Part shown: positions 37,232 to 45,043 of the stretch, piece by piece
Layout: each line of letters begins with the position of its first letter
Position numbering within the stretch: the first letter of the stretch is position 1
Source: Escherichia coli
GTDB lineage: Bacteria > Pseudomonadota > Gammaproteobacteria > Enterobacterales > Enterobacteriaceae
NCBI RefSeq assembly: GCF_017348835.2
Contig: NZ_CP071375.1
DNA: 64,000 nucleotides
Strand: one strand, 5' to 3'
Program-made: the position numbers and the translations under genes
Notes under the pieces: generated by a model
Seen by the model: the letters and a program-made list of their open reading frames with translations, nothing else
Told to the model about the DNA's origin: nothing
Databases searched by the model: none

Positions 37232-38631
37232 AGTTCTGGCGACCCGGTATTACCGGCAAACTGTTTCTGGCGATTTTCGCCACCTGCATTGTCTTGCTGA
37301 TCAGTATGCACTGGGCGGTGCGTATCAGTTTTGAGCGTGGCTTTATTGATTACATCAAGCATGGTAATGAACAGCGATTACAACTGTTAAGTGATGCGCT
37401 TGGCGAGCAGTATGCGCAGCATGGCAACTGGCGCTTCCTGCGCAACAATGATCGCTTTGTCTTTCAGATCCTGCGTTCATTTGAACACGATAATTCGGAA
37501 GATAAACCCGGCCCGGGTATGCCACCACACGGCTGGCGTACTCAGTTCTGGGTGGTTGATCAAAACAACAAGGTGCTGGTTGGTCCGCGAGCGCCGATTC
37601 CACCTGACGGTACACGGCGACCCATTCTGGTCAACGGTGCGGAAGTGGGCGCGGTGATTGCCTCCCCCGTTGAGCGGCTGACCCGCAATACTGATATCAA
37701 TTTCGATAAACAACAGCGGCAAACCAGCTGGCTGATTGTCGCCCTGGCAACGTTACTCGCGGCGCTCGCCACCTTTCTGCTGGCGCGTGGTCTTTTGGCC
37801 CCGGTCAAACGGCTGGTGGACGGCACGCACAAACTGGCGGCGGGCGATTTCACAACCCGCGTGACGCCCACCAGTGAAGATGAACTGGGCAAACTGGCGC
37901 AAGACTTCAACCAGCTTGCCAGCACGCTGGAGAAAAACCAGCAAATGCGGCGCGATTTTATGGCCGATATTTCTCACGAACTGCGTACGCCATTAGCGGT
38001 GCTGCGCGGTGAACTAGAAGCTATTCAGGATGGCGTGCGCAAATTCACGCCGGAGACGGTGGCGTCTTTACAGGCGGAGGTCGGTACACTGACCAAACTG
38101 GTTGACGATCTTCATCAGTTGTCGATGTCTGATGAAGGCGCTCTCGCCTATCAAAAAGCACCGGTAGATTTGATCCCACTGCTGGAAGTGGCGGGCGGCG
38201 CATTTCGCGAACGATTCGCCAGCCGTGGCCTGAAACTGCAATTTTCCCTGCCAGACAGTATTACCGTATTTGGCGATCGCGACCGTTTAATGCAGTTGTT
38301 CAATAATTTACTGGAAAACAGCCTGCGCTACACTGACAGCGGCGGCAGCCTGAAAATCTCTGCCGAGCAGCACGACAAAACGGTGCGCCTGACCTTTGCC
38401 GACAGTGCGCCAGGTGTCAGTGACGATCAGCTACAAAAATTGTTTGAACGTTTTTATCGCACCGAAGGTTCCCGCAACCGTGCCAGCGGCGGTTCCGGGC
38501 TGGGGTTGGCGATTTGCCTGAACATTGTTGAAGCACATAATGGCCGCATTATTGCTGCCCATTCGCCTTTTGGCGGGGTAAGCATTACAGTAGAGTTACC
38601 GCTGGAACGGGATTTACAGAGAGAAGTATGA
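37228..38631 (+). CDS. baeS: Envelope-stress sensor histidine kinase BaeS
   Basis: 467-aa ORF; HAMP domain, H-box ([10 protein letters not shown]) and HATPase_c motifs. Confidence 0.93.
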
Positions 38632-39350
38632 CCGAGTTACCAATCGACGAAAACACACCGCGTATTTTGATCGTGGAAGATGAACCGAAGCTGGGGCAGT
38701 TGCTCATTGATTATCTGCGTGCTGCGAGCTATGCGCCGACGCTTATCAGCCACGGCGATCAGGTACTGCCGTATGTGCGCCAGACACCACCGGATCTGAT
38801 CCTGTTGGATCTGATGCTCCCTGGCACCGATGGCTTGACGCTGTGCCGGGAAATTCGTCGTTTTTCTGACATTCCTATCGTGATGGTCACGGCAAAAATC
38901 GAAGAGATCGACCGCCTGCTCGGACTGGAGATTGGCGCAGATGATTATATCTGTAAGCCGTACAGCCCACGGGAAGTGGTAGCGCGCGTCAAAACCATTT
39001 TGCGCCGTTGCAAACCGCAGCGTGAGTTGCAGCAACAGGATGCTGAAAGCCCGTTGATTATCGACGAAGGTCGTTTTCAGGCTTCATGGCGCGGTAAAAT
39101 GCTTGACCTGACGCCTGCGGAATTTCGTCTGCTGAAAACGCTCTCTCACGAACCAGGAAAAGTGTTCTCCCGCGAGCAATTGCTCAATCATCTTTATGAC
39201 GACTACCGCGTAGTAACCGACCGCACCATCGACAGCCACATTAAAAACCTGCGCCGCAAGCTGGAATCTCTCGACGCCGAACAGTCATTTATCCGCGCCG
39301 TTTACGGCGTTGGTTACCGCTGGGAAGCCGACGCCTGCCGCATCGTTTAG
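38628..39350 (+). CDS. baeR: OmpR-family response regulator BaeR
   Basis: 240-aa ORF; receiver domain plus winged-helix domain; 4-nt overlap with baeS. Confidence 0.93.
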
Positions 39351-39540
39351 TTTTAGCGACATTACTTTGTTAGCCGGAGATGGCGTTCAGACCAGATCCG
39401 GCAACATTATCCCACGCATGGTCAGCAAACTGACATTATCTCTCCGCCCTGGCAGGCATCAGAAAATCGCTCATACTTTAATCGGTCAACAGCACCTTTA
39501 GATGCTGTTTTCGATAAGCAATTTCAATCAAGGAGTCATT

Positions 39541-39873
39541 ATGGCTGGTTGGTTTGAACTCAGTAAGAGCAGTGATAATCAGTTCCGGTTTGTGCTAAAA
39601 GCGGGCAATGGTGAGACTATCCTCACCAGCGAGCTGTATACCTCAAAAGCCTCTGCGGAAAAGGGCATCGCGTCGGTGCGTAGCAACAGCCCGCAAGAAG
39701 AACGCTATGAGAAAAAAACGGCAAGCAACGGCAAATTCTATTTCAATCTGAAAGCCGCCAATCATCAAATTATCGGCTCCAGCCAGATGTATGCTACCGC
39801 GCAATCTCGTGAAACCGGAATTGCCTCCGTTAAAGCCAATGGCACAAGCCAGACGGTGAAAGACAATACGTAA
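39541..39873 (+). CDS. yegP: UPF0339/DUF1508 tandem-domain protein YegP
   Basis: ORF track 123 aa; ATG at 39541 (RBS aaggag) gives the 110-aa product MAGWFELSKSSDNQFRFVLKAGNGE... with two internal repeats. Confidence 0.85.
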   Translation: MAGWFELSKSSDNQFRFVLKAGNGETILTSELYTSKASAEKGIASVRSNSPQEERYEKKTASNGKFYFNLKAANHQIIGSSQMYATAQSRETGIASVKANGTSQTVKDNT

Positions 39874-40116
39874 TTACGATGCCGGGCGTGGGTTGTTGGC
39901 GTCCGGCTTTATTTCCAAATAACGCTTATTTATTTACCTGCGCCATTAAAATAGTGGACACTGATGAATACTCATTGTGCTTTCTTTGTTTAACATCTCC
40001 ATGCTTATCCTCCTGAACATGTTCATCTGCCAAAATATCTTCTAATACTTTTCGTGACGCTATCCGGTTTATGACATACACTGATGTAAGATTTTTACTT
40101 ACAGGAGAGCATAAAC

Positions 40117-40368
40117 ATGGCCAGAACGATGACGGTTGATCTCGGCGATGAGTTGCGTGAATTTATCGAGTCCTTAATTGAATCCGGCGACTATCGCACC
40201 CAAAGCGAAGTGATCCGTGAGTCACTGCGCTTACTTCGAGAAAAGCAAGCAGAGTCTCGCCTGCAAGCGTTACGTGACATGCTTGCAGAAGGGTTGAGTA
40301 GTGGTGAAGCTCAGCCGTGGGAAAAGGACGCGTTTTTACGGAAGGTGAAAGCAGGGATAAGGAAATAA
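40117..40368 (+). CDS. parD: Type II antitoxin ParD (ribbon-helix-helix, CopG/ParD family)
   Basis: 83-aa ORF MARTMTVDLGDELREFIESLIESGDYRTQSEVIRESLRLLREKQ...; RBS acaggagag upstream. Confidence 0.75.
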   Translation: MARTMTVDLGDELREFIESLIESGDYRTQSEVIRESLRLLREKQAESRLQALRDMLAEGLSSGEAQPWEKDAFLRKVKAGIRK

Positions 40369-40369
40369 T

Positions 40370-40666
40370 GTGCGTATTATTAAACTCATGCCAAAAGCCA
40401 ATGAGGATTTAGAAGGCATCTGGTATTACAGTTATCACCATTTCGGCGAACCACAAGCCGACAGATATGTGGAACATCTTTCAGACGTTCTCCAGATTCT
40501 GAGTAACAATAATATAGGTACGCCCAGACCTGAATTAGGCGAAGGTATTTTTGTTCTTCCTTTTGAACGCCACGTAATTTATTTCCTGCAATCACCAGGG
40601 GAAATTATCGTCATTCGTACCCTTAACCAAAACCAGGACGCCACCAGACATTTACACTGGAGCTAA
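40370..40666 (+). CDS. parE: Type II toxin ParE (RelE/ParE superfamily)
   Basis: 98-aa ORF (GTG start one nt after the parD stop) …GTPRPELGEGIFVLPFERHVIYFLQSPGEIIVIRTLNQNQD…, typical ParE C-terminal block. Confidence 0.75.
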   Translation: MRIIKLMPKANEDLEGIWYYSYHHFGEPQADRYVEHLSDVLQILSNNNIGTPRPELGEGIFVLPFERHVIYFLQSPGEIIVIRTLNQNQDATRHLHWS

Positions 40667-40768
40667 ACCCGCCGATTGCGCTACAATGCCCGCCCTTAAA
40701 GTGGGGGCACTCCCCTAACCGCTTCATCAGGTGAAGCGGATCTGACCTGTCATCAGAACGAGAGAATT

Positions 40769-42130
40769 ATGTTTAAACCGGAACTCCTTTCCCCGGCGGG
40801 AACGCTGAAAAATATGCGTTACGCTTTCGCTTATGGCGCAGATGCTGTTTATGCGGGCCAGCCGCGTTACTCCCTGCGTGTGCGCAACAACGAATTCAAC
40901 CACGAAAACCTTCAGCTCGGCATCAATGAAGCCCACGCGCTGGGGAAAAAGTTTTATGTCGTGGTCAACATTGCACCGCACAACGCCAAGCTGAAAACCT
41001 TTATCCGTGACCTGAAACCGGTGGTGGAAATGGGGCCGGATGCGCTGATTATGTCCGATCCAGGGCTGATTATGCTGGTGCGTGAGCACTTCCCTGAAAT
41101 GCCGATCCACCTCTCGGTGCAGGCTAACGCCGTAAACTGGGCGACGGTGAAATTCTGGCAGCAAATGGGCCTGACCCGCGTGATCCTCTCTCGCGAGCTG
41201 TCGCTGGAAGAGATTGAAGAGATCCGTAATCAGGTGCCGGATATGGAGATCGAGATCTTCGTTCACGGCGCACTGTGCATGGCCTACTCCGGTCGCTGCC
41301 TGCTCTCTGGCTATATCAACAAGCGCGACCCGAACCAGGGTACCTGCACCAACGCCTGCCGCTGGGAGTACAACGTCCAGGAAGGGAAAGAAGATGAAGT
41401 TGGCAACATCGTACACAAGTACGAGCCGATTCCGGTGCAAAATGTTGAGCCGACGCTGGGTATCGGCGCGCCAACCGACAAAGTGTTTATGATCGAAGAG
41501 GCCCAGCGTCCGGGCGAGTATATGACCGCGTTTGAAGATGAGCACGGCACTTACATCATGAACTCGAAAGATCTGCGCGCCATCGCCCATGTAGAACGCC
41601 TTACCAAAATGGGCGTGCATTCGCTGAAAATCGAAGGTCGTACCAAATCTTTCTACTATTGCGCACGCACCGCACAGGTTTACCGCAAAGCTATCGATGA
41701 TGCCGCTGCGGGCAAACCGTTTGACACCAGCCTGCTGGAAACCCTGGAAGGTCTGGCGCATCGTGGCTATACCGAAGGTTTCCTGCGTCGTCATACTCAC
41801 GACGATTATCAGAACTACGAATACGGTTATTCAGTTTCTGACCGCCAGCAGTTTGTAGGTGAGTTTACCGGTGAGCGCAAGGGGGACCTCGCGGCGGTAG
41901 CGGTGAAAAATAAATTCTCCGTTGGCGACAGCCTTGAGCTGATGACGCCGCAAGGCAACATTAACTTTACCCTTGAGCACATGGAAAACGCCAAAGGTGA
42001 AGCGATGCCGGTCGCACCAGGCGATGGTTATACTGTGTGGCTCCCGGTCCCGCAGGATCTTGAGCTCAATTACGCTCTGCTGATGCGTAATTTCTCCGGG
42101 GAAACCACGCGTAACCCACACGGTAAGTGA
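40769..42130 (+). CDS. yegQ: Peptidase U32-family protein YegQ (TrhP, implicated in tRNA 5-hydroxyuridine synthesis)
   Basis: 453-aa ORF MFKPELLSPAGTLKNMRYAFAYGADAVYAGQPRYSLR... Confidence 0.9.
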   Translation: MFKPELLSPAGTLKNMRYAFAYGADAVYAGQPRYSLRVRNNEFNHENLQLGINEAHALGKKFYVVVNIAPHNAKLKTFIRDLKPVVEMGPDALIMSDPGLIMLVREHFPEMPIHLSVQANAVNWATVKFWQQMGLTRVILSRELSLEEIEEIRNQVPDMEIEIFVHGALCMAYSGRCLLSGYINKRDPNQGTCTNACRWEYNVQEGKEDEVGNIVHKYEPIPVQNVEPTLGIGAPTDKVFMIEEAQRPGEYMTAFEDEHGTYIMNSKDLRAIAHVERLTKMGVHSLKIEGRTKSFYYCARTAQVYRKAIDDAAAGKPFDTSLLETLEGLAHRGYTEGFLRRHTHDDYQNYEYGYSVSDRQQFVGEFTGERKGDLAAVAVKNKFSVGDSLELMTPQGNINFTLEHMENAKGEAMPVAPGDGYTVWLPVPQDLELNYALLMRNFSGETTRNPHGK

Positions 42131-42214
42131 TTAATTTCGATTATTTTTCCCGGATGGAAAATTCTTAGAAACCGATCACATACAGCTGCATTTATTAAGG
42201 TTATCATCCGTTTC

Positions 42215-42301
42215 GCTGAAAAACATAACCCATAAAATGCTAGCTGTACCAGGAACCACCTCCTTAGCCTGTGTAATCTCCCTTACACGGGCTTATTTTT
42301 T
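42215..42301 (+). ncRNA. cyaR: CyaR (RyeE) Hfq-dependent sRNA
   Basis: gctgaaaaacataacccataaaatgctagctgtaccaggaaccacctccttagcctgtgtaatctcccttacacgggcttatttttt matches my memory of CyaR, including the terminal hairpin and U-tract. Confidence 0.85.
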
Positions 42302-42459
42302 ATGCATAAGCCCTATCCCTGGTCACCGTCTTCCATTGACCACATCGATAGAATCTCCCTTCATAGCACGATGCCTTTCACGTAACGGCATCGTGCTCGC
42401 ACAGGTTCCGGCTAAGCACAACCAGAACGCGCATGTTTGACGCTTACCAAAAAATATTC

Positions 42460-42777
42460 TCACTCTCCACATTTGAATGTCAGACGAGCGACGCCATGTA
42501 ATCCTGCACCTTCTGTCTTCAGGTCAACTATCTGCATTTTTTTGCCCTGAGTAACACAGAAATGGGCTGCATCATTTTTTACTATATTTTCTGCACCAGA
42601 TATTCTACCCCTGGCTAAAGAAGCTTCGGCTTCGGTGTAGTATTGGTTATCGAGTTTACGCTGAATATTACTTTTATATGCAAGACCAAATTTACCGATA
42701 CTTGTCTCATCATTATGCACAGCACAACCAGACATAAGAAAAATACTAAATAATGATATAGCAACTATCTTTTTCAT
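42460..42777 (-). CDS. yegR: Small lipoprotein YegR
   Basis: 105-aa ORF MKKIVAISLFSIFLMSGCAVHNDE… with lipobox LMSGC. Confidence 0.8.
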   Translation of the reverse strand: MKKIVAISLFSIFLMSGCAVHNDETSIGKFGLAYKSNIQRKLDNQYYTEAEASLARGRISGAENIVKNDAAHFCVTQGKKMQIVDLKTEGAGLHGVARLTFKCGE

Positions 42778-43183
42778 CTCACCTTCCCCCCATTAAATAC
42801 CAACGACACGCCCTGGTGTTTAAATATAATAATGGCATGATTATTATAATTGAATAGGATTATAATAAATGTTCTGTACAACATTTCCTACATAAGTAGG
42901 AATTACGGACATGGAGGCCCTTCCGGGTAACTCTATGGGGGCTTTAATATATTATATTGAAGATGCCACTGTTTAGTTGAATATTAGGTATATGCTCTTT
43001 TTTGAAATTTATCGGTGGCTGCCGTTAGTATTCGCTGTCCCCATTGCAAGCTCCTGGTGGTAACCACTGAATCCTCCATACTTGAACTGACTATTTATCC
43101 TCCGACTTTCATCCTGTTCTGACTCCACCTTTTCTTTTCTGCTCTACACTATCTACAGACCAATCATAAAGGCACATACGATC

Positions 43184-44083
43184 ATGGCAGAATTTCCCGC
43201 CAGCTTACTGATTCTTAATGGCAAAAGTACTGACAATCTACCCTTGCGCGAAGCAATTATGCTGTTGCGTGAGGAAGGAATGACGATCCATGTGCGGGTC
43301 ACCTGGGAGAAAGGCGATGCCGCACGATATGTAGAGGAGGCCCGGAAGTTGGGCGTCGCAACGGTGATTGCCGGTGGTGGCGATGGCACCATTAATGAAG
43401 TTTCTACGGCGTTGATTCAGTGTGAGGGGGATGACATACCCGCGCTGGGAATTTTGCCATTAGGAACCGCCAATGATTTTGCCACCAGTGTAGGGATTCC
43501 TGAGGCACTGGATAAGGCGCTGAAACTGGCAATTGCCGGTAACGCCATTGCGATAGATATGGCGCAGGTCAACAAACAAACCTGTTTTATTAATATGGCG
43601 ACAGGCGGATTTGGGACGCGTATTACCACAGAAACGCCGGAAAAATTAAAAGCCGCGCTGGGTGGCGTCTCTTATATCATTCATGGCTTAATGCGCATGG
43701 ATACTCTGCAACCGGACCGTTGTGAAATCCACGGTGAAAACTTTCACTGGCAAGGTGACGCCCTGGTCATTGGTATTGGTAACGGGCGTCAGGCCGGTGG
43801 CGGTCAACAATTGTGCCCGAACGCGTTAATTAACGATGGCTTGCTGCAACTGCGCATTTTTACCGGCGATGAAATTCTTCCGGCTCTCGTATCAACCTTA
43901 AAATCTGACGAAGATAACCCGAATATTATCGAAGGCGCTTCGTCGTGGTTTGATATACAAGCCCCACACGAAATCACTTTTAATCTTGATGGCGAACCGT
44001 TGAGTGGGCAAAACTTCCATATTGAAATACTTCCGGCGGCGTTGCGTTGTCGATTACCACCAGATTGTCCATTATTGCGTTAA
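43184..44083 (+). CDS. yegS: Lipid kinase YegS (DAGK_cat family)
   Basis: 299-aa [49 protein letters not shown]...GGDGT…. Confidence 0.9.
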
Positions 44084-44120
44084 TCAAACTATTCTCTCTT
44101 GAACCAGGGAGAATCCGTAA

Positions 44121-44152
44121 TGCCGGATGCGGTGTAAACACCTTATCCGGCA
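44121..44152. repeat. REP element between yegS and gatR
   Basis: tgccggatgcggtgtaaacaccttatccggcatac. Confidence 0.65.
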
Positions 44153-44164
44153 TACAGAACAATA

Positions 44165-44944
44165 CTACACCGTAATTAATTTTACCCGTGTCTTCTGCAA
44201 TGCCAGTTTATCCACCTCTGACACGGCATCATCGGTAATAATAATGTCAATTTTTTCGATTGGCAGTACCTGATTAAAACCGCGACGATTAAATTTCGAT
44301 GAATCGAGAACGGCAATCACTTTATTTGCGGCGGTGACCATCGCCCCGCTAATCGAATAACCTTCATTAAAGGTCGTAATACCATTAACCGCATCAATAC
44401 CATCAGCACCGACAAACATTAAATCGGCATTAATATCCTGCAATGAACGCTCGGCAATGGAACCATGCATCGAGCGCGTTTTATGGCGGACCGTGCCACC
44501 ACAGACGACCAGAGTAATGTCTTTATTTTCGGAAAGGGCAAACGCTGCCGGGAGACTGTTGGTAATCACCGTGATATTTTTGGCGGTCATTAATCCTTCG
44601 GCGATAAGCATTGTCGTACTTCCGCTGTCGAGAATAACGGTCATCCCTTCGTGGATCATTTTGACTGCCGCCTGCGCTATTCTGTTTTTTGGCGCGCTGG
44701 CGAGCTGAAATCGCTCTTTAAACCCGACTTCCTGGGTCTCGGTTTCACTATTACCGGACATTATTTTCGCCGCACCGCCATGAAAGCGCGTAACCACGCC
44801 TTTTTGTTCGAGAAAGCGCAAATCGGCACGGATTGTCGCTTCCGAGGCAGCAAATACTCCCGCCAGATCCTGAACAAGCACGGTTCCCTGTTCATTCACT
44901 AATTGGATGATCTTATTCCTTCGCTCGAATGAATTCATCGTCAT
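44165..44944 (-). CDS. gatR: DeoR-family galactitol operon repressor GatR (apparently intact)
   Basis: 259-aa uninterrupted ORF MTMNSFERRNKIIQLVNEQGTVLVQDLAGVFAASEATIRADLRFLEQKG…; no IS element interrupts it. Confidence 0.88.
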   Translation of the reverse strand: MTMNSFERRNKIIQLVNEQGTVLVQDLAGVFAASEATIRADLRFLEQKGVVTRFHGGAAKIMSGNSETETQEVGFKERFQLASAPKNRIAQAAVKMIHEGMTVILDSGSTTMLIAEGLMTAKNITVITNSLPAAFALSENKDITLVVCGGTVRHKTRSMHGSIAERSLQDINADLMFVGADGIDAVNGITTFNEGYSISGAMVTAANKVIAVLDSSKFNRRGFNQVLPIEKIDIIITDDAVSEVDKLALQKTRVKLITV

Positions 44945-45043
44945 TTACCCATATTCAATTGTGGCTAGTGTAAACGAAGGGGGACCATTGGTGAATGATC
45001 TGTTTTGCACAATACCGGGCCAGCATCACGCTGGCCCGCGGTT

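Follow-up and report, generated by a model that had tools for sequence, protein, structure and literature searches.

The gap between yegP and yegQ in the stretch of Escherichia coli DNA analysed here (64,000 nucleotides, referred to below as the window) contains two small genes, parD and parE, which very probably form a functional two-gene type II toxin–antitoxin operon of the ParD(PF03693)/ParE family. In such an operon ParD would neutralise ParE and repress the operon, and free ParE would poison DNA gyrase. The pair is of an already known kind: its family, architecture and mechanism are textbook, and the RefSeq annotation already names the pair in over 1800 complete genomes of E. coli. The features discussed below are collected in Table 1.

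Table 1. Features of the yegP–yegQ region. Positions are those of the window unless another locus is named.
Feature	Position	Strand	Description and basis
yegP	39541–39873		Left neighbour of the pair; baeS and baeR also lie on the left side
yegP intrinsic terminator	39881–39916	+	Stem GCCGGGCG...CGTCCGGC and T-rich tail; read from the sequence
Strain-specific segment (leader, parD, parE)	39907–40677	+	771 bp in place of 22 bp (CGCTTTACCAGAGCCCCCCACA) in K-12; alignment
Non-coding leader	39908–40116	+	Approximately 210 bp, 34.8% GC; six-allele alignment
Perfect 12-bp palindrome TGAACATGTTCA	40014–40025		Approximately 100 bp 5′ of parD
Candidate sigma-70 promoter	40054–40082	+	−35 GTGACG (40054–40059), 17-nt spacer, −10 TACACT (40077–40082)
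RefSeq/PGAP parD "frameshifted" flag	40071–40120; L012 598–895; L010 555–852		Region concerned in the window and in two further loci
Palindrome tacactgatgta (TACA-CTGA-TGTA) of the sequence-only reading	40077–40088		4-bp arms, 4-nt spacer; overlaps the candidate −10
Inverted repeat TGTAAG-ATTTTTA-CTTACA	40085–40103		Perfect 6-bp arms, 7-nt AT spacer
parD	40117–40368	+	PF03693, TIGR02606, PDB PrpA 7ycs_D
parE	40370–40666	+	PF05016, PDB sequence matches, AF2 model and Foldseek
yegQ/trhP	40769–42130		Right neighbour; NCBIfam NF011996 (TrhP), 876 bits
CyaR	42213–42298		Intact in the window; Rfam scan

The sequence and the list of open reading frames place both genes on the plus strand. The first encodes 83 amino acids, from an ATG at 40117 to a TAA at 40366–40368, and the second 98 amino acids, from a GTG at 40370 to a stop at 40664–40666, so that a single nucleotide (40369) separates the parD stop from the parE start. 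parD is preceded by a Shine–Dalgarno-like AGGAG at 40103–40107, 9 nt 5′ of its ATG. The corresponding sequence for parE, AAGGA at 40359–40363, is 6 nt 5′ of the GTG and lies within the 3′ end of parD. Two small co-oriented genes, with the antitoxin first and a 1-nt gap, constitute the layout of a type II system. An Rfam scan of 38000–45000 found no RNA element besides CyaR.

The 83-residue protein matches the Pfam family PF03693 (ParD_antitoxin) from its first residue, with an E-value of 4.7e-19 over model positions 1–76 of 81, and it exceeds the curated cut-off of NCBIfam TIGR02606 (46.2) with a score of 88.4 bits over model positions 1–69 of 70. Its closest match in the PDB is the antitoxin PrpA (7ycs_D, E = 1.9e-27), to which it is 61% identical (47/77) over ParD residues 2–78. 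An isolated ribbon-helix-helix (RHH) fragment of PrpA in the PDB aligns to residues 2–53, there is a weak RHH_1 match at residues 6–42, and the RHH β-strand, RTMTVD, is the same in PrpA and ParD. By homology, ParD is predicted to consist of an N-terminal RHH domain for DNA binding and dimerisation, followed by a toxin-binding C-terminal region.

The 98-residue protein matches PF05016 (ParE_toxin) with an E-value of 2.5e-12 over model positions 1–88 of 89, while an NCBIfam scan found no model that matches it. An earlier sequence-only reading of this DNA had described an 83-residue frame followed one nucleotide on by a 98-residue frame with a GTG start, and both are exactly as described; the close spacing and the GTG start to which it drew attention are borne out. 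It had also proposed profile searches for the two proteins, and these gave the ParD models for the first and the ParE model for the second. When the PDB was searched by sequence, ParD/ParE pairs were the sole matches for both proteins: PrpA/PrpT of Pseudoalteromonas rubra (7ycs; E = 1.9e-27 and 6.4e-12), M. tuberculosis ParDE1 (8c24), Caulobacter ParDE1 (3kxe), Vibrio cholerae ParDE2 (7r5a and 7b22) and Mesorhizobium ParDE3 (5ceg). ParE is 33% identical to PrpT (31/93).

Because PF05016 covers RelE-type RNases as well, the fold of the toxin was also compared. Among 1.84 billion cluster representatives searched, 1602 are related to ParE at E ≤ 1e-3, and an 81-sequence alignment of these was used to build an AlphaFold (AF2) model, which has a mean pLDDT of 94.5. 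The model consists of a long α1–α2 hairpin (residues 8–25 and 27–46) packed on a three-stranded antiparallel sheet (60–65, 68–74 and 78–86). In a Foldseek comparison with the PDB, ranks 1–22 are all ParE toxins, with TM scores of 0.73–0.87 and E-values of 1e-8 to 1e-4, and the best match is again PrpT (TM 0.87–0.90, rmsd 1.1 Å). Below the top 22 come mainly RelE, YoeB and YafQ, from rank 24 onwards (TM 0.5–0.68, E ≥ 6.6e-4), together with M. tuberculosis ParE2 (8c26, TM 0.56). The profile and PDB matches of the two proteins and the fold of the toxin therefore place the pair in the ParD(PF03693)/ParE family by each feature that is open to computational testing.

The residues that are near-invariant in the family (A10, D13, Y20, Y33, H68 and R83) are all kept in the window ParE. 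Residue 25, in the hairpin loop, is Phe both in the window ParE and in PrpT; among the 81 relatives this position is Trp in 42 and Phe in 34. It corresponds to the gyrase-contacting Trp25 of VcParE2, where a change from Trp to Phe lowers toxicity (bioRxiv 10.1101/2025.07.24.666505).

The leader of the operon presumably contains its promoter and operator. An alignment of six alleles indicates that the 5′ half of the leader differs among them, including a 13-bp indel, and that the 3′ half (approximately 40003–40116) is conserved among the E. coli alleles and in E. whittamii. Two short reading frames in the leader were considered and rejected as genes: a 51-residue frame on the minus strand (39926–40081), which would have been a third gene and which carries 1-nt indels between alleles, and a 9-codon frame on the plus strand, which is disrupted or absent in other alleles. 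A standard promoter scan of the plus strand (at least 9 of 12 consensus positions) found no promoter in the leader. A lenient scan identified the candidate sigma-70 promoter listed in Table 1, which matches at 8 of 12 positions and whose hexamers are invariant across alleles; its predicted transcription start would be at about 40089–40090. A 9/12 candidate (ATGACA at 40071 and TTTACT at 40094) was rejected, as it is without A at position 2 of the −10 hexamer and its start would fall inside the Shine–Dalgarno sequence.

The best candidate for the ParD operator is the inverted repeat TGTAAG-N7-CTTACA, which sits between the candidate −10 hexamer and the Shine–Dalgarno sequence, and does not differ among the E. 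coli alleles examined; in E. whittamii it has one arm mismatch. We suggest an operator role for it because RHH antitoxins generally act at such sites, as in the footprint of PrpA (PMC7848731). The leader has more inverted repeats with 6-bp arms than chance would give: there are five, compared to an expectation of 0.72, and only 7 of 1000 shuffled sequences reach five. Three of the five form an AT-rich cluster beside the yegP terminator. Further upstream, the perfect palindrome TGAACATGTTCA is invariant in the six aligned alleles, including that of E. whittamii, though adjacent positions vary; it is possibly a second operator or a site for a host factor.

The sequence-only reading had instead put forward an imperfect palindrome near 40085–40100 as the site of ParD autoregulation. 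This palindrome, tacactgatgta, does exist, but at 40077–40088, and we do not favour it as the operator. The leader holds 11 perfect 4-bp inverted repeats with a spacer of up to 4, compared to 5.1 expected from shuffled sequences, so tacactgatgta individually is not above chance; its right arm reads CGTA in E. whittamii, and it has no match to the PrpA motif. An operator in its neighbourhood is nevertheless plausible. The PrpA operator motif RTTTGWAATR has no match anywhere in the leader, and allowing up to two mismatches gives 2 matches against 2.5 expected; the motif is absent although the DNA-reading β-strand of the two antitoxins is identical. The direct repeat ACACTGATG (39958 and 40078) was also considered as a pair of ParD half-sites; neither the common allele nor E. 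whittamii has kept it, and it was set aside as a chance occurrence.

The alleles of parD fall into two classes. Three substitutions and a 1-nt indel immediately 5′ of the ATG set them apart (AGGAGAGCATAAACATG versus AGGCGGGCGTAAA-ATG). These differences are clustered within approximately 12 nt at the parD ribosome-binding site (40103–40116 in the window and 1740–1753 in locus L002), and may alter the rate at which ParD is translated. The window type (AGGAGAGCATAAAC) occurs in 104 genomes and is the form shared with E. whittamii, while the common type (AGGCGGGCGTAAA) occurs in 1676. In the common type the indel, a deletion, puts an upstream ATG in frame and adds a 15-codon extension, giving the 98-residue ParD that RefSeq annotates for that allele. 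In genomes with the window allele, including O55:H7 RM12579 and PE164 (which matches the window at 100% identity), RefSeq/PGAP flags parD as "frameshifted". The flag is most likely an artefact of the over-extended 98-residue reference, and the 83-residue frame the real gene, because both profile models begin at residue 1–4 of the 83-residue form, PrpA is itself 86 residues long, E. whittamii has the 83-residue form, and the alleles do not share the upstream frame.

The module is absent from K-12, in line with the sequence-only reading: in BW25113 the yegP–yegQ gap is 146 bp long and contains no genes. The segment that is specific to carriers has a GC content of 42.9% (34.8% in the leader), compared to approximately 54% in baeSR and yegQ. 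Its left boundary is at the 3′ edge of the yegP terminator, which is kept 5′ of the module; a terminator scan places the inner stem at 39895–39907, followed by TTTATTTCCA, and the alignment of the window with K-12 diverges past ...GCGTCCGG. The possibility that the 22-bp K-12 segment is the scar of a parDE deletion was rejected as unsupported, since the scores of its local alignments against the insert and against the last 35 nt of the insert were reached by 1551 and 501 of 2000 shuffles respectively. By eye, the TTTAC...GAGCC of K-12 looks like the 3′ end of parE, a resemblance that is not backed by the shuffle test.

We counted the 550-bp coding region at 95% identity or more in complete E. 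coli genomes, and found it in 1843 of 5426 (34%), always as a single chromosomal copy. The pair is thus not near-universal in the species; with its absence from K-12 and the profile matches of both proteins, neither of the outcomes that the sequence-only reading had named as refuting it was observed. In these genomes the RefSeq product name of parD is "type II toxin-antitoxin system ParD family antitoxin", and that of parE is "RelE/ParE family toxin". The exact ParD and ParE protein sequences occur on at least 1000 and 623 public contigs, respectively. On plasmids, relatives of ParE were found in 2516 records, but they are at most 63–65% identical, the closest being on conjugative plasmids of Salmonella, Klebsiella and Citrobacter; two plasmid matches at 98% were set aside as megabase-sized records that are evidently chromosomal. 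Since the plasmid relatives are no more than 65% identical, the chromosomal parDE lineage is distinct from the plasmid copies. Presence in 34% of E. coli, low GC and the existence of plasmid relatives together make up the distribution of an accessory, horizontally mobile element.

Outside E. coli, one representative per species was scanned. E. whittamii has an intact module at the same locus, with a ParE that is 94% identical to that of the window. The codon changes between the two are mostly synonymous (synonymous to non-synonymous 8:1 in parD and 8:5 in parE), and this excess indicates that both genes are under purifying selection, as judged from the sequence comparison. In Escherichia sp. 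E1V33 the yegP–yegQ gap is 344 bp long (L007 1357–1700) and joins the start of the leader directly to the last approximately 130 nt of parE; this remnant of an internal deletion shows the module to be older than that lineage. Pluralibacter gergoviae has a parE homologue, 67% identical, between alr and tyrB (L006 3001–3294), which is a pseudogene, interrupted by a stop at codon 44 and by changes of frame. In E. coli HH97 (L009 556–1142) the annotation gives the two genes of the module as frameshifted, either through real decay or through assembly error.

A third state of the locus is seen in E. coli A0 34/86 (NZ_CP120567.1; L011 307–5633), where a 5.3-kb island fills the yegP–yegQ gap. It comprises four genes, encoding a PcfJ-domain protein, DUF1266 and DUF4034 proteins and a hypothetical protein, and it had no convincing match in PADLOC (best PDC-S32, E = 4.8e-4). 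On either side of the island stand the first approximately 62 nt of the parDE leader and the last 21 nt of parE, remnants which show that it replaced a parDE module. This state is found in 298 complete E. coli genomes. The gap is therefore a three-state hotspot (empty, parDE, or the 5.3-kb island with parDE remnants), and seems to act as a replaceable landing pad; the second occupant also bears out the hotspot character of the site. Plasticity of toxin–antitoxin insertion sites has been described in reviews (PMC7167474), and covers the behaviour seen here. In E. coli Z142-7 yegQ is followed immediately on its 3′ side by a P2-like prophage with ogrK and a late control D gene (L003 4726–6091), in agreement with an earlier remark on a yegQ–cyaR–yegR hotspot.

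On the downstream side, a terminator scan from parE to yegQ/trhP (40648–40768) predicted no intrinsic terminator. In addition, the sequence at the −35 position 5′ of a conserved TACAAT (40682–40687) that precedes yegQ/trhP is TTTACC in K-12 and GGAGCT in the window. With no predicted terminator after parE and a changed −35 sequence, yegQ may be expressed differently in strains that carry the module and in those that lack it. In its folding the yegQ leader does not stand out (z = −0.86). The gene trhP encodes a tRNA U34 hydroxylase, and read-through into it from a ParD-autoregulated promoter would couple tRNA modification to the toxin–antitoxin state and make the module more than a selfish insert; we regard this as quite improbable.

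The mechanism that we propose is as follows. A single transcript would start in the leader, within its conserved 3′ half, and encode ParD and then ParE. ParD would dimerise through its N-terminal RHH domain, and its C-terminal part would wrap around ParE and neutralise it, as seen in the crystal complexes PrpA2–PrpT2 and ParD2–ParE2. Alone or together with ParE, ParD would also repress its own promoter by way of the inverted repeats near the −10 hexamer and transcription start. ParD is probably labile, and on its depletion free ParE would poison DNA gyrase, leading to a block in replication, the SOS response and filamentation. The analysis itself demonstrates how the genes are organised, which family and fold they belong to, that they are intact and under purifying selection, and how they are distributed in the population; toxicity, the gyrase target, the lability of ParD, autoregulation and the choice of operator are carried over from the family. 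The gyrase step is drawn from the characterised relatives CcParE1, VcParE2, MtParE1 and RK2 ParE, and some ParE homologues are only weakly toxic. PrpT is toxic to E. coli and causes filamentation, and is neutralised by PrpA, which represses and footprints its own prpAT promoter (PMC7848731). The target of PrpT was not reported as gyrase in the two PrpTA papers (PMC7848731, PMC9731233). A literature search found no experimental paper on the yegP–yegQ parDE locus.

Three other readings have to be weighed against this. Neither PF05016 nor the RefSeq name "RelE/ParE family" separates ParE from RelE, and the Foldseek matches include structures of RelE, YoeB and YafQ, so the toxin might be thought to resemble RelE and to cleave mRNA on the ribosome instead of poisoning gyrase. 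This is extremely improbable: the RelE-type structures fall below the 22 ParE chains in both TM score and E-value, no RelE-type chain was returned by the PDB sequence search at E-values up to 1, the model has the long N-terminal α-hairpin typical of ParE, and the partner of the toxin is a PF03693 ParD and not RelB. We also consider it very unlikely that the module is decaying or non-functional in the window strain, with parD a frameshifted pseudogene and parE inactive or silent. The PGAP annotation of PE164 and O55:H7 RM12579 would suggest this, as would the decay seen elsewhere, in the frameshifts of HH97, the remnants in E1V33 and A0 34/86 and the Pluralibacter pseudogene. However, the supposed frameshift falls in the 15-codon upstream extension, which exists in the common allele only. 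The 83-residue frame covers the Pfam and TIGR02606 models from the first position, matches the 86-residue PrpA end to end, is the form present in E. whittamii and has a good AGGAG Shine–Dalgarno sequence; synonymous changes greatly outnumber non-synonymous ones, and the toxin retains every near-invariant residue.

The remaining reading accepts ParDE biochemistry and supposes that the pair is kept for a different role, which might be anti-addiction against the 63–65% identical plasmid parDE, defence against phage by abortive infection, or regulation of other targets by ParD. There are indications in its favour in the many plasmids that carry ParE relatives, in the second, non-operator DNA target of PrpA, namely plasmid iterons (PMC7848731), in matches to phage protein families (phrog_18611, 6.5e-14), and in the persistence of the module in Escherichia, at the same locus in E. 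whittamii. PADLOC, however, found no defence model that matches ParD or ParE, and the module has been repeatedly lost or replaced, as expected of a dispensable selfish element. On balance we consider such a role unlikely.

The closest characterised relative of the proposed toxin–antitoxin operon is PrpA/PrpT from the P. rubra plasmid pMBL6842 (7YCS; PMC7848731, PMC9731233). The two systems have the same two Pfam families with the antitoxin first, and similar sizes (86 and 98 residues for PrpA/PrpT, 83 and 98 for the window pair). They differ in that the window module is chromosomal and intergenic whereas PrpA/PrpT is on a conjugative plasmid, in that the window genes are 1 nt apart whereas prpA and prpT overlap by 8, and in that the PrpA motif (G/A)TTTG(T/A)AAT(A/G) is not matched in the window leader. 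As the module is not on a plasmid, there are no plasmid iterons for the window ParD to act on.

CcParDE1 (3KXE), VcParDE2 (7R5A) and MtParDE1 (8C24) are chromosomal and have gyrase as their proven target. They share with the window pair a PF03693/RHH ParD and the same ParE fold (E-values of 1.6e-7 to 3.6e-6, TM 0.83–0.84), but the identity between the toxins is only 26–30%, and at the hairpin loop VcParE2 has the gyrase-contacting Trp in place of Phe25. The founding member, ParD/ParE of RK2/RP4, has a toxin of the same PF05016 family and the same type II logic. Its antitoxin, RK2 ParD, belongs to PF09386, which is unrelated in sequence to the PF03693 antitoxins (PMC7848731). The PaaR-PaaA-ParE systems of E. 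coli O157:H7 prophages (5CZF, 5CW7) also have a toxin of ParE fold (TM approximately 0.77), which is however only 16–17% identical, and they are prophage-borne and consist of three components with a separate regulator, whereas the window system has two components and an RHH antitoxin and does not lie in a prophage.

The finding matters little beyond bookkeeping, as it adds a correctly recognised member to one of the largest and best-studied families of toxin–antitoxin systems. Some practical value lies in three results: the pseudogene flag on parD in RefSeq is most likely an artefact, the yegP–yegQ gap is a hotspot with three states, and there is a chromosomal lineage at most 65% identical to the plasmid copies. 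This lineage appears to be experimentally unstudied, and offers a ParE that would be easy to test in its natural host species.
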